This document shows, one piece after another, positions 650-11,702 of a stretch of 11,702 bases of DNA. The translations under genes were made by a program, and so were the position numbers. Each line of letters starts with the position of its first letter. Positions within the stretch are counted from its first letter, which is position 1. The stretch lies in the IMG/VR virus record IMGVR_UViG_2744054854_000004; one strand, written 5' to 3'. The DNA comes from a virus (taxonomy: Duplodnaviria > Heunggongvirae > Uroviricota > Caudoviricetes). The notes under the pieces were generated by a model. That model was not told where the DNA came from and made no database searches. It saw only the letters and a list, made by a program, of their open reading frames with translations.

Positions 650-1078
650 ATGTACGTATGGAGCGCTAAAGCAAATGGCTTTTTCCCCATATCGGAGAAA
701 GAAAAATTTGAGGCATCAGGTCTGTGGCCTGATGATGGTGTAATAGTCAGTGAGGAAGAACATAAAAAGTTATTTATGGATATTCCACCAGGAAAACAGA
801 TTGGAACACTGAATGGAAAACCAGCACTGATAGATATTCCTCAGCCGACCAAAAAGGAATTAATAGCTATTGCTGAAGTTAAAAAATCCCAATTACGGGA
901 AAAAGCTGACAGTGAAATATCCTGGCGTCAGGATGCTGTTGATGCTGATATCGCAACTGATGAAGAAACTTCAACTCTCACCGAATGGAAGAAATACCGT
1001 GTGCTGCTGATGCGTGTTGATACTTCAACAGCACCCGATATTGAATGGCCTACGCCTCCGGCAGTTCAGGCCAGATGA
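650..1078 (+). CDS. Tail fibre assembly chaperone, cassette A (Tfa; Mu U / P2 gpG family)
   Basis: 142 aa with the characteristic Tfa C-terminal motif [15 protein letters not shown]; tightly coupled to the upstream fibre segment. Confidence 0.85.
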
Positions 1079-9736: not shown

Positions 9737-9764
9737 TTGATATTTTGTGTATCATTACAATAAT
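9737..9764 (+). promoter_or_regulatory. Putative sigma70 promoter for ogr
   Basis: -35 TTGATA 9737..9742, 16-bp spacer, -10 AATAAT 9759..9764, in the AT-rich D-ogr intergenic region. Confidence 0.35.
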
Positions 9765-9791
9765 TCTGATAGCAAAGGTAGGGATCTGGAT

Positions 9792-10010
9792 ATGATGAAT
9801 TGTCCAAAGTGTGGTCATGCGGCACACACAAGGAGCAGTTTTCAAGTAACTGAAAGCACCAAAGAGCGTTACTGCCAGTGCCAAAATATTAACTGCGGGA
9901 GCACTTTTGTTACCCATGAAACAGTGGTCCGGTTTATTGTGACACCCGCACTGATTGCTACTGCTCCTCCACATCCATTGCCAGGTGGTCAGGGGCATAT
10001 GAATTTTTGA
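9792..10010 (+). CDS. ogr: Ogr/Delta-family zinc-finger late gene transcriptional activator
   Basis: 72 aa from the ATG at 9792: MMNCPKCGHAAHTRSS...TKERYCQCQNINCGSTF...HPLPGGQ closely matches recalled P2 Ogr (MFHCPLCQHAAHARTS...TKERYHQCQNVNCSATF...HPLPSGQ), with the four Cys at the same positions. The longer ORF from 9747 would start inside the putative promoter. Confidence 0.88.
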   Translation: MMNCPKCGHAAHTRSSFQVTESTKERYCQCQNINCGSTFVTHETVVRFIVTPALIATAPPHPLPGGQGHMNF

Positions 10011-10018
10011 GAAAGAGA

Positions 10019-10040
10019 ACCTGCTACGGCAGGTTTTTAT
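10019..10040. terminator. Bidirectional rho-independent terminator between convergent ogr and the cargo gene
   Basis: Stem CCTGC (10020..10024), loop TACG, stem GCAGG (10029..10033), followed by TTTTTATT on the plus strand and by TTCTCTTTC on the minus strand; 9 nt after the ogr stop and directly abutting the cargo gene stop (TAA 10037..10039). Confidence 0.7.
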
Positions 10041-10519
10041 TCATCTGGGATCTCACCCGTTTCAAGAAAATGTATAAAGCCAGGCTCATCTATGATGATT
10101 GTGCCTTTCATCCTGGCTGCCGATACTTTTGATGGGCCTGCATTGTAACCGCAACAGAGCATCTGAAGGCTTTGGGTTACAGAGGTTCTTACCGTTAATC
10201 CTTGTTCATTCGCCTTATCAACCAATCTTTCTTTATCTGCTTTCTTAAATCCGGTGAAACACACATCGAATGTATTTTTTTTCGGACCAGACTGCTTAGT
10301 GAGATGTGAGTAGTTTTCGGGGAGGAATGATGTGCATTCCTGAATGGCTTGTTCTGGTGAATCGTACTGTTTAAGAATGCGGTCTTTTCGGAAGGTTTTT
10401 ATTCGATCGGTGTTCTTACAAATGCCCTGTATATGATTTTCGCTATAACTGATGCTCTGTATAGAGTGAACACCGATACGACCATTTGCATTGATGTAAA
10501 CAAAGTGAAGTTCTTCCAT
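10037..10519 (-). CDS. Hypothetical 160-aa cargo (moron) protein: N-terminal WYL-like domain plus C-terminal BRCT-like domain; function unknown
   Basis: Strong SD AAGAGG 6 nt before the ATG (10517..10519); uninterrupted ORF. Visibly AT-richer than the flanking tail genes (by eye, not computed). Residues about 85..158 (CFTGFKKADKERLVDKANEQGLTVRTSVTQSLQMLCCGYNAGPSKVSAARMKGTIIIDEPGFIHFL) align by eye to the LigA-type BRCT pattern. Residues about 5..47 (FVYINANGRIGVHSIQSISYSENHIQGICKNTDRIKTFRKDRIL) fit the WYL-domain pattern ending in R-x-F-R-x-D-R-I. Confidence 0.75.
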   Translation of the reverse strand: MEELHFVYINANGRIGVHSIQSISYSENHIQGICKNTDRIKTFRKDRILKQYDSPEQAIQECTSFLPENYSHLTKQSGPKKNTFDVCFTGFKKADKERLVDKANEQGLTVRTSVTQSLQMLCCGYNAGPSKVSAARMKGTIIIDEPGFIHFLETGEIPDE

Positions 10520-10545
10520 GTCAAACCTCTTTGCATGATTTCAAG

Positions 10546-10584
10546 ATGGCGACAGGCAAGATGGACGCAAAAGTCTGTCGCCAT
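10546..10584. repeat. Perfect 10-bp palindrome with 19-bp spacer, containing a direct repeat, in the 5' region of the cargo gene
   Basis: ATGGCGACAG (10546..10555) and CTGTCGCCAT (10575..10584) are exact reverse complements. CAAGATGG occurs twice in direct orientation (10542..10549 and 10557..10564). Lies 27..65 bp upstream of the cargo gene ATG. Confidence 0.6.
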
Positions 10585-10603
10585 TTTGCCGCCACTACCT
10601 AAG

Positions 10604-10632
10604 AAAAAGGGGCTACGCTTTCACGTAACCCC
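10604..10632 (-). terminator. Rho-independent terminator of ssrA
   Basis: On the minus strand, 10 nt after the tmRNA CCA end: GGGGUUACG, 6-nt loop, CGUAGCCCC (9-bp stem with one G-U pair), followed by UUUUUCUU. Confidence 0.75.
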
Positions 10633-10642
10633 TTGATTTATT

Positions 10643-11005
10643 TGGTGGAGCTGGCGGGAGTTGAACCCGCGTCCGAAATTCCTACATCCTCGGTACTACA
10701 TGCTTAGTCAGTCTTTACATTCGCTTGCCAGCTGCGGACGGACACGCCACTAACAAACTAGCCTGATTAAGTTTTAACGCTTCAACCCCAGGCAGGGCTT
10801 CCACGCGATCTCTTTTGGGTTTGACCTCTCTTGATCCCCGTTCTAAGAGCGGAGGCTAGGGAGAGAGGGCTCTAAGCAGGTTATTAAGCTGCTAAAGCGT
10901 AGTTTTCGTCGTTTGCGACTATTTTTTGCGGCTTTTTACGAGGCCAACCGCCCCTCGGCATGCACCTTGGGTTTCGCAAATCCCGTCGAATCCAGAATCA
11001 GCCCC
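10643..11005 (-). ncRNA. ssrA: tmRNA (SsrA, 10Sa RNA), mature 363-nt form
   Basis: Reverse complement reads GGGGCUGAUUCUGGAUUCGACGGG...CGGGUUCAACUCCCGCCAGCUCCACCA, matching E. coli tmRNA as recalled. Tag reading frame GCA AAC GAC GAA AAC UAC GCU UUA GCA GCU UAA (ANDENYALAA) at 10884..10916 on the minus strand. Confidence 0.97.
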
Positions 11006-11019
11006 AATGTGTAAAGGTA

Positions 11020-11049
11020 AGTATACCAGATTTATGAGCGCCATGACCA
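11020..11049 (-). promoter_or_regulatory. Putative ssrA promoter
   Basis: Minus-strand -10 TATACT (11020..11025) a few nt upstream of the mature 5' end, with a weak -35-like TGGTCA (11044..11049) at 18-bp spacing; TSS not determinable from sequence. Confidence 0.35.
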
Positions 11050-11219
11050 GCCTCAATGGCGTTATCGTTAAAGATTTAGCACCCATGTAGCCTGATTTTT
11101 ATTCGATTAAGCAATGGGATGGCAACATTTGTGTCGGATGTGATAGCCAATAAGATGTTCATTCGCGCCGCCGGAGAGGGAGGCGCGGTGAGGAACTGGT
11201 CAATAATTGGAGTGCAGGT

Positions 11220-11702
11220 TTAACGGTGGGCGTTTTTCATGATACGTGCTTTATCCACCTGCCATTCGCGCTCTTTGATATCTGAACGTTTATCGTGCTG
11301 TTTCTTACCTTTGGCGACGCCGATTTTCACTTTGCACCAGGCATTTTTCCAGTACAGGGAGAGCGCCACTACGGTATAGCCTTCTCGATTGACGCGACCG
11401 TACAATGAGTCCAGTTCGCGCTGGTTGAGAAGTAACTTGCGGGTACGGGTAGGATCGCACACCACATGCGTGGAGGCCACGGCCATTGGCGTGATGTTAG
11501 CGCCAAACAGAAATGCCTCTCCGTCACGCAGAAGGACGTAGCTGTCGCTGATATTGGCTTTTCCTGCGCGCAGGGATTTAACTTCCCAGCCTTGCAGGGC
11601 AAGTCCCGCTTCGAACTCTTCTTCGATAAAGTATTCGTGACGGGCGCGCTTGTTAAGCGCGATGGTCGCTGAACCAGGTTTATGTGCTTTTTTCTTCGTC
11701 AT
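11220..11702 (-). CDS. smpB: SsrA-binding protein SmpB (trans-translation cofactor)
   Basis: 160 aa, [80 protein letters not shown]..., matches E. coli SmpB as recalled; canonical smpB-ssrA tandem on the same strand. The start codon is the last three bases of the window. Confidence 0.97.

Follow-up and report, generated by a model that had tools for sequence, protein, structure and literature searches.

An 11,702-nucleotide stretch of viral DNA (hereafter the window) was found to be the ogr-side end (attR) of a P2/186-like prophage residing in the 3' end of ssrA, and the palindrome at 10546-10584 within it, together with the 8-mer that follows, probably belongs to a cluster of 186-type integrase (Int) arm-type sites, of the kind present in the attachment sites of P2-like phages (Peduoviridae). 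Binding of Int to this cluster is predicted. The consensus, the position, the presence of sites on both sides of the core, the cognate Int and a conservation that is independent of the neighbouring cargo gene (conservation of the tandem pair of sites, not of the left copy) all agree with this assignment. The comparisons below support a reading of the palindrome as a known kind of site which is here unannotated, with an inverted copy specific to this lineage and with a cargo gene set against the arm; in the phage and genome records examined, no feature was annotated under the arm-site stretch.

Genomic context of the attachment region

The closest relative of the prophage is Escherichia phage Cartapus, of the genus Elveevirus (Peduoviridae). 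In the ORF list, P2-like tail genes on the plus strand are followed by ogr (9747-10010) and then by a minus-strand gene (10037-10519) encoding a 160-aa BRCT-domain protein, which we refer to as the cargo gene. A bidirectional terminator (10018-10035; AACCTGC-TACG-GCAGGTT, with T-runs on each strand) lies between these two genes. Beyond the arm sites is an intrinsic terminator hairpin supplied by the phage (10607-10634, minus strand), characterized by a 12-pair stem, a GAAA loop and a T-run. This hairpin is kept in all ssrA-type relatives and ends ssrA in the lysogen; its counterpart in phage 186 is annotated in the 186 record as the terminator of the lysogenic operon. The integration target ssrA (tmRNA) occupies 10643-11005 (ARAGORN; Rfam RF00023, 291 bits), and smpB is found on the minus strand together with the cargo ORF and the tmRNA gene.

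A minus-strand match to the IHF consensus WATCAANNNNTTR (AATCAAGGGGTTA) was found at 10626-10638, in the DNA that separates the arm sites from the core. It is no more than a consensus match, one of two in the window against 0.49 expected; its position corresponds to that of the core-adjacent IHF sites in P2 and 186. The core and crossover region lie in a 50-bp segment of the ssrA 3' end (10638-10687) over which attR and attL are identical, as seen when window positions 10620-10700 are set against attL from the E. coli LS4 copy of the prophage (L125 4970-5022). The order of elements in the window (ogr, cargo gene, arm sites, terminator, IHF consensus match and 50-bp core segment) agrees with the layouts of 186 and P2. 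The DNA at 10000-10700 is 100% identical in E. coli LS4 and other strains, and at the other end of the prophage in LS4, int adjoins a 186-type switch (CI, CII, Fil). Near its left end, the window contains a run of 100 N (173-272), either masked or unresolved.

The palindrome and the embedded direct repeat

A search for repeats and for the sequence itself recovered a perfect 10-bp inverted repeat, in which ATGGCGACAG (10546-10555) is followed after a 19-nt spacer by its exact reverse complement CTGTCGCCAT (10575-10584), with arms 27-65 bp upstream of the cargo ATG (cargo ORF 10037-10519, minus strand). The repeat, its spacer and its distance from the cargo gene are thus as given in a preliminary description of this DNA, whose interval of 10542-10584 begins with the first CAAGATGG and closes with the right arm. 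A longer, imperfect form of the inverted repeat has arms of 14 nt at 93% identity (10542-10555 and 10575-10588).

The palindrome is the sole perfect inverted repeat in the window with arms of at least 10 bp and a spacer of at most 30 bp. At least one such repeat is, however, present in 30% of random windows of the same size generated under a Markov-1 model, and for this reason the palindrome alone is not significant. An exact 8-mer of the arm motif is expected in inverted orientation within 60 nt with a probability of about 0.002, and here the match extends to 10 nt. The motif TGYCGCCA has six matches in the whole window against 1.28 expected, and three of the six are clustered at 10547-10594. 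The palindrome is therefore non-random through the content of its arms, not through its symmetry.

The same preliminary description had treated the embedded direct repeat of CAAGATGG (10542-10549 and 10557-10564, plus strand, 15 bp from start to start in the repeat search) as meaningful, and this we could not sustain: the window has 10 short-range direct repeats of 8-mers against 5.2 +/- 2.9 expected, so the frequency of such repeats is not above chance, and the CAAGATGG repeat was not found in the other BRCT-cargo lineages among the loci compared. A degenerate second inverted copy of the arm motif, TGGACGCA, was read directly from the sequence at 10562-10569 (minus strand, 6/8 match). It is without the invariant CGCCA core, and an imperfect inverted repeat pairs 10562-10572 with 10584-10594 at 82%. 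This copy probably remains from a 15-bp tandem duplication (CAAGATGGCGACAGG / CAAGATGGACGCAAA); taken together, TGGACGCA and the CAAGATGG repeat look like such a duplication after divergence.

Predicted tandem arm-type sites on the ogr side

Two types are distinguished among the arm repeats of P2-like phages, tgTGGaCa in the P2 type and tgccGCCActt in the 186 type, and both are read by the N-terminal domain of the integrase (Nilsson et al. 2011, PMC3448106). In the RefSeq record of phage 186, 'predicted' Int arm-type sequences with the consensus YAYCGCCAYTY are given as three sites to the left and two to the right of attP. The right arm of the palindrome matches the 186-type consensus as predicted arm-type site 1 (TGTCGCCATTT, 10576-10586, plus strand), and predicted site 2 (TGCCGCCACTA, 10587-10597, plus strand) follows 11 bp, or one helical turn, after it; the tandem 8-mers within these sites are TGTCGCCA (10576-10583) and TGCCGCCA (10587-10594). 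The left arm of the palindrome is a third, inverted copy (TGTCGCCATCT), discussed separately below. The CGCCA core is present in all three copies, which fit tgccGCCActt, and their second motif base is G as against A in the 186-specific consensus. Because of these consensus matches, and because relatives share the tandem, we interpret the right arm as the first of two tandem 186-type arm sites. According to the records, binding of Int to arm sites of the 186 type is predicted by comparison rather than footprinted.

In BLAST searches against phage records, similarity to the cargo-less SopEPhi, RE2010, SEN8 and Klebsiella prophages begins at about 10569-10575, that is, at the right arm. These cargo-less relatives, Cartapus and Yersinia phage MLG42 all read TG(T/C)CGCCA-TTT-TGCCGCCA, with the 8-mer repeated after 11 bp, and in all of them the tandem is followed by the terminator hairpin and then by the last ~50 bp of ssrA. 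We found the tandem in every ssrA-integrating relative examined, including ones recovered without the motif, and it is unchanged in ssrA-integrating relatives of six genera, irrespective of upstream content.

A pattern scan of viral contigs placed the tandem in 86 distinct upstream contexts, which include ogr terminators, different cargo genes, int 3' ends and non-ssrA cores. These contexts need to be interpreted cautiously, as the set was chosen by the motif itself; conservation was therefore judged on loci retrieved with the cargo protein, or with the left part of the region alone, as the starting point. In the same way, the zero variation of the right arm in the per-position polymorphism of the viral-contig loci is an artefact of selection by the tandem pattern. 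In the loci to which the cargo protein had led, those of Erwinia, Klebsiella, Plesiomonas, Tatumella and Citrobacter, GTGGCGGCAAA[A/T]TGGCG[A/G]CAG is retained, with variation at the R/Y positions only, and the remainder of the ~60-nt intergenic region is divergent in the loci of these same five genera.

Sites on the int side and the cognate integrase

On the int side of the same prophage (attL in LS4), TGCCGCCAAAGTGCCGCCA is found at L125 5113-5131, just before the int stop codon. This second tandem lies 94 nt after the 50-bp ssrA segment in LS4, and it is at exactly 94 nt past the core in the arms of 12 of 13 distinct relatives, with the intervening DNA diverged. The Int of the prophage in LS4 is 56% identical to the Int of 186 and 39% identical to that of P2. 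Three N-terminal positions (W11/E14/Y16 in the 186 type) have been proposed as discriminators of arm sites (Nilsson et al., PMC3448106), and at these positions the prophage Int has the same residues as 186, W11, E14 and Y16, where P2 Int has Y/D/R.

One of the readings offered in the preliminary description, which took the elements for arm-type or accessory sites used by the integrase in the attachment region, is supported by the match to the 186 consensus, the int-side tandem, the presence of the tandem in every ssrA relative examined and the 186-type N-terminus of Int. The comparison recommended there, with the attP of P2-like phages that use ssrA, likewise agrees, as SopEPhi, RE2010 and SEN8 share the right arm and the tandem.

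Comparison with phage 186 and other attachment sites

Phage 186 and the window share the CGCCA-core motif, an 11-bp tandem on the ogr/B side and an extra inverted copy distal to the tandem; the 186 tandem, CACCGCCATTC / TATCGCCACTC, has the same 11-bp spacing as sites 1 and 2. In both, a terminator and next an IHF site separate the arm sites from a core derived from the 3' end of a tRNA-like gene, and a second tandem lies beside int. The two prophages also have in common the CI/CII/Fil switch, Int (at the 56% identity given above) and the N-terminal discriminator residues. They differ in that the window prophage targets ssrA whereas 186 targets tRNA-Ile, in that the second base of the motif is G in the window (TGYCGCCA) and A in 186, and in that 21 bp separate the inverted copy from the tandem in the window but 7 bp in 186. 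Unlike 186, the window has the BRCT cargo gene between ogr and the sites, so that the sites fall upstream of a gene, and it has the degenerate second inverted copy.

When 186 was scanned with its own consensus, exactly five sites were found, each a perfect match: L126 880-890 (minus), 898-908 (plus) and 909-919 (plus) on the B/ogr side, and L126 1127-1137 and 1138-1148 on the int side. The annotated arrangement of 'three plus two' in 186 therefore holds only if the inverted copy at L126 880-890 is counted. In the 186 record, the Int protein_bind feature starts at 20889, and the inverted copy (20879-20889, equivalent to L126 880-890) is almost wholly outside it; this start may be a coordinate slip in the record.

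The ssrA Felsduovirus phages (SopEPhi, Fels-2, RE2010 and SEN8) and the Klebsiella Gegavirus prophages have near-identical DNA from the right arm through the tandem and terminator to the 50-bp core. The Salmonella ssrA phages differ from the window in that their third copy is direct and lies ~20 bp upstream, right after the ogr terminator, without cargo there, and the Klebsiella ssrA phages differ in having another cargo gene and no third copy. The P arm of P2 attP resembles the window in its order (ogr terminator, P arm, IHF, core, Cox/Apl sites, P' arm, int) and in its principle of paired direct repeats on both arms. The P2 sites are, however, footprinted and have the consensus tgTGGaCa, and P2 Int is of the N-terminal subtype Y/D/R as against W/E/Y in the window prophage. 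A further parallel is the overlap of attL and the intS promoter in KplE1 (Panis et al. 2010, PMC2951348), where sites for recombination proteins likewise lie in the upstream region of a gene; there it is int itself that is regulated, as experiments have shown, whereas the neighbour in the window is the cargo gene and its regulation is hypothetical.

The inverted third copy

The left arm of the palindrome is a predicted third arm-type copy in inverted orientation (TGTCGCCATCT on the minus strand, 10544-10554, with the left-half 8-mer at 10547-10554), of which 10 nt are identical to site 1 reversed. Among 53 distinct ssrA-type contexts, 23 have a direct third copy (at -16 to -30, mostly -19/-20), seven have an inverted copy at -29 and 23 have none; all seven contexts with the inverted copy are of the window lineage. 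With a third copy lacking in 23 of the 53 contexts and direct in another 23, the left copy is not generally required.

In the largest group of loci with the BRCT gene (MLG42, L127, L128, L130 and L131), the left arm is replaced by unrelated sequence, and the left half is missing from the Yersinia/Citrobacter/Klebsiella/Erwinia/Tatumella lineage which carries the homologous cargo gene. The preliminary description had let its case turn on whether the palindrome is conserved in related prophages with the same gene. The answer differs between the two halves, as the right half is kept even without the gene, whereas the left half is lost in the five loci named above. Weaker inverted GCCGCC elements, loose echoes of the form GCCGCCT, are present at roughly the same place in L129 (TGCCGCCT) and L133 (CGCCGCCT), and these could hint at a role for the inverted partner that is linked to the cargo.

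Within the E. coli lineage, the left arm is conserved no better than its non-coding flanks, with two of 14 positions variable against three of 19 in the spacer. A recurrent variant, ATGGCGATAG (L015 and AZ147), breaks the palindrome, yet its reverse complement, TATCGCCAT, is still a consensus arm site, and no compensatory or paired change in the right arm was seen among the natural variants compared. This pattern fits separate protein-binding sites, not a dyad or a hairpin retained for its symmetry. The distance from the core centre of the inverted copy to site 1 is 18 bp in 186 and 32 bp in the window; because this difference of 14 bp is not a whole number of helical turns, functional equivalence of the two inverted copies is uncertain. 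We regard use of the left copy by Int and its persistence as a tolerated relic as about equally probable.

Of 5426 E. coli genomes, 163 carry the element, each at a single place. The cargo leader plus the left arm matched 166 places, two of which sit on E. coli records typed as plasmids. A single copy, L061 (IMGVR_UViG_2609459791_000004), is mutated within the left arm's CGCCA core (ATGGTGACAG); in this locus, the cargo-plus-arm region is followed by a disrupted ssrA core and then by unrelated DNA, and it is possibly a decaying or rearranged prophage end.

The cargo gene and its insertion slot

The cargo protein scores just below the Pfam threshold for BRCT (19.6 vs 21.3 bits), matches phrog_2561 (E 3.6e-77) and is named 'BRCT domain-containing protein' by PGAP. 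Its resemblance to BRCT is confined to the C-terminal half, and it has a weak PADLOC match to PDC-S48 (E 1.8e-7). The same ogr-to-att slot encodes BRCT cargo proteins of ~70% identity in a Yersinia phage and in the ssrA prophages of five genera, Erwinia, Klebsiella, Plesiomonas, Tatumella and Citrobacter; the BRCT cargo loci compared were the window, L127-L131, L133 and L001. In the records, these proteins are named inconsistently as DNA ligase, exonuclease, levansucrase regulator or hypothetical.

The cargo cassette is a single ORF between two terminators, and as the bidirectional terminator at 10018-10035 separates ogr from the cargo gene, we treat it as self-contained. Its transcription possibly depends on a weak or unusual promoter, or on read-through from ssrA past the strong terminator at 10607-10634. 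The junction between ogr and the arm is a hotspot for cargo insertion. Several unrelated minus-strand genes start about 30-60 bp from the tandem at this junction, for which the 86 distinct upstream contexts were recorded. One such gene, a Klebsiella ORF at L004 1323-1478, has an N-terminus resembling a signal peptide and seems under-annotated in MK433578.

Alternative explanations for the palindrome

The preliminary description had put forward an operator for the cargo gene, that is, control by a dedicated dimeric transcription factor bound to two 10-bp half-sites, and a perfect dyad does lie upstream of a gene start. The right half-site is, however, already accounted for by the attachment arm and is kept where the cargo is absent, the left half-site is not kept alongside the homologous gene, the centres of the half-sites are 29 bp apart, and the variant in AZ147 and L015 breaks the symmetry without a paired change on the other side. 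Nor does the cassette contain a regulator gene, being one ORF between two terminators; the only regulator adjoining it is ogr, which recognises a different kind of site, and a host factor would be a further candidate. Finally, a simple consensus scan, which weak or activator-dependent promoters could escape, found no sigma-70-type promoter upstream of the cargo ATG, on its minus strand, in any of three lineages (the window, MLG42 and L129). We consequently consider such an operator extremely unlikely. The promoter result bears also on a different form of regulation, in which Int itself, expressed in the lysogen from the cI-int operon, would repress or tune the BRCT gene from arm sites overlapping the cargo promoter. 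As int belongs to the lysogenic operon in 186-type phages, Int may occupy the arm sites in the lysogen, and these sites are 27-78 bp upstream of the cargo ATG. An extended -10-like element, TGaAATCAT, was noted by eye on the minus strand at ~10533-10541 and would put the inverted site at about -26 to -19; the weak inverted GCCGCC elements upstream of the BRCT gene in L129 and L133 point in the same direction, as does KplE1, whose intS promoter is overlapped by att and repressed by IntS and its RDF (PMC2951348). Against this, the scan of the window, MLG42 and L129 yielded no sigma-70 promoter, the inverted copy is missing in the largest BRCT lineage (MLG42, L127, L128, L130 and L131), and other cargo genes abut the same tandem without an inverted partner. 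Hypothetical gating of BRCT transcription by lysogen Int on the inverted-plus-tandem sites, whether through a weak promoter overlapping the inverted site or through read-through from ssrA, which is expressed at a very high level, thus appears unlikely to us. Were it true, expression of the cargo would be coupled to the recombination state of the prophage; a moron at an att arm would be regulated by the recombination machinery, and the inverted copy would have been retained in the window lineage for that reason.

The palindrome might instead act in RNA, with the inverted copies folding into a 5' stem-loop that stabilises, processes or attenuates cargo mRNA in transcripts arriving from ssrA in the lysogen or from the int operon in the circular phage. 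The predicted folds are stable relative to shuffled sequences on the minus strand (10520-10642, -47.4 kcal/mol, z -5.3, a segment which includes the ssrA terminator) and on the plus strand (10536-10600, -25.8 kcal/mol, z -4.2), and an imperfect palindrome abuts the tandem in the MLG42 lineage as well. Folding is, however, an automatic consequence of inverted copies of one motif, the stem is not followed by a U-run on either strand, the strong terminator at 10607-10634 lies upstream of the palindrome on the minus strand, and natural variants disrupt the stem uncompensated. The palindrome has no Rfam match; across 9900-11300, an Rfam scan by E-value returned tmRNA alone, besides meaningless sub-threshold matches. 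An RNA element is on this evidence very unlikely. The left arm could also be a chance match, leaving the palindrome without meaning beyond the tandem, and it is true that 30% of random windows hold a comparable perfect inverted repeat; but the probability of about 0.002 for an exact inverted arm 8-mer within 60 nt, with 10 nt matching here, and the inverted copy at the equivalent place in phage 186 both speak against it, and of the explanations weighed here we give coincidence the least credence.

Several further candidates were tried and rejected. As an intrinsic terminator, the palindrome would have a loop of 19 nt and a T-run inside the extended stem with none after it, and the terminator scan reports 10607-10634 and 10018-10035 instead. 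P2 late promoters, which are activated by Ogr/Delta, carry a TGT-N12-ACA dyad; by eye, this spacing was not seen on either strand, the dyad here being ACAG-N19-CTGT. A dispersed (REP-like) repeat was ruled out by the occurrence at one place per genome in the 163 of 5426 E. coli genomes.

Proposed organisation of the attachment site

Under the arm-site assignment, the palindrome would belong to the ogr-side arm of a 186-type attachment site at ssrA, an arm which is called P in P2 and corresponds to attR in the lysogen, and the layout on this arm would be inverted + direct + direct. By analogy with P2, 186 and lambda, Int's N-terminal domains would bind the arm sites, and its core-binding and catalytic domains would hold the ssrA-derived core within 10638-10687. 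IHF may bend the DNA between the arm sites and the core, at the consensus match at 10626-10638. The int-side tandem, 94 nt beyond the core, would act likewise on the other arm, and both arms together would build the integration intasome and, with the excisionase Apl, the one for excision. We propose that the BRCT cassette was inserted between the ogr terminator and the arm sites; the arm sites would then lie in the upstream region of the cargo gene because of this insertion, for a historical and not a regulatory reason. The motif identity, the arrangement, the conservation, the presence on both arms and the integrase type are direct observations, and binding of Int at the arm sites is expected from lambda and P2, in which it is established, and from 186, in which it is predicted.

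The main value of these results is correct annotation: the stretch can be labelled as the predicted P-arm Int-binding cluster of an ssrA-integrating 186-type prophage. They also outline a minimal attP/attR for this phage group, comprising the tandem, the terminator, the IHF site, the 50-bp core and, 94 nt past it, a second tandem. Cargo genes which start ~30-60 bp from the arm sites raise the question of whether occupancy by Int affects their expression.

The tandem beside other attachment cores

The same TGCCGCCATTTTGCCGCCA tandem was also observed beside other att cores (...GGCAACAAAAAACCCATCAACC...) and directly after int genes, in L063, L039, L046, L073 and L106 and in L021, L027, L090 and L114. 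A single arm-site specificity thus appears to be common to integrases with different core targets. In one ssrA-type locus, L025 (minus orientation, downstream of the ssrA core), the core is flanked by a 186-type tandem on one side and on the other by P2-type motifs (GGTGGACAAAATGTGGA...TGTCCA), a mixture which suggests tandem or hybrid elements at ssrA.
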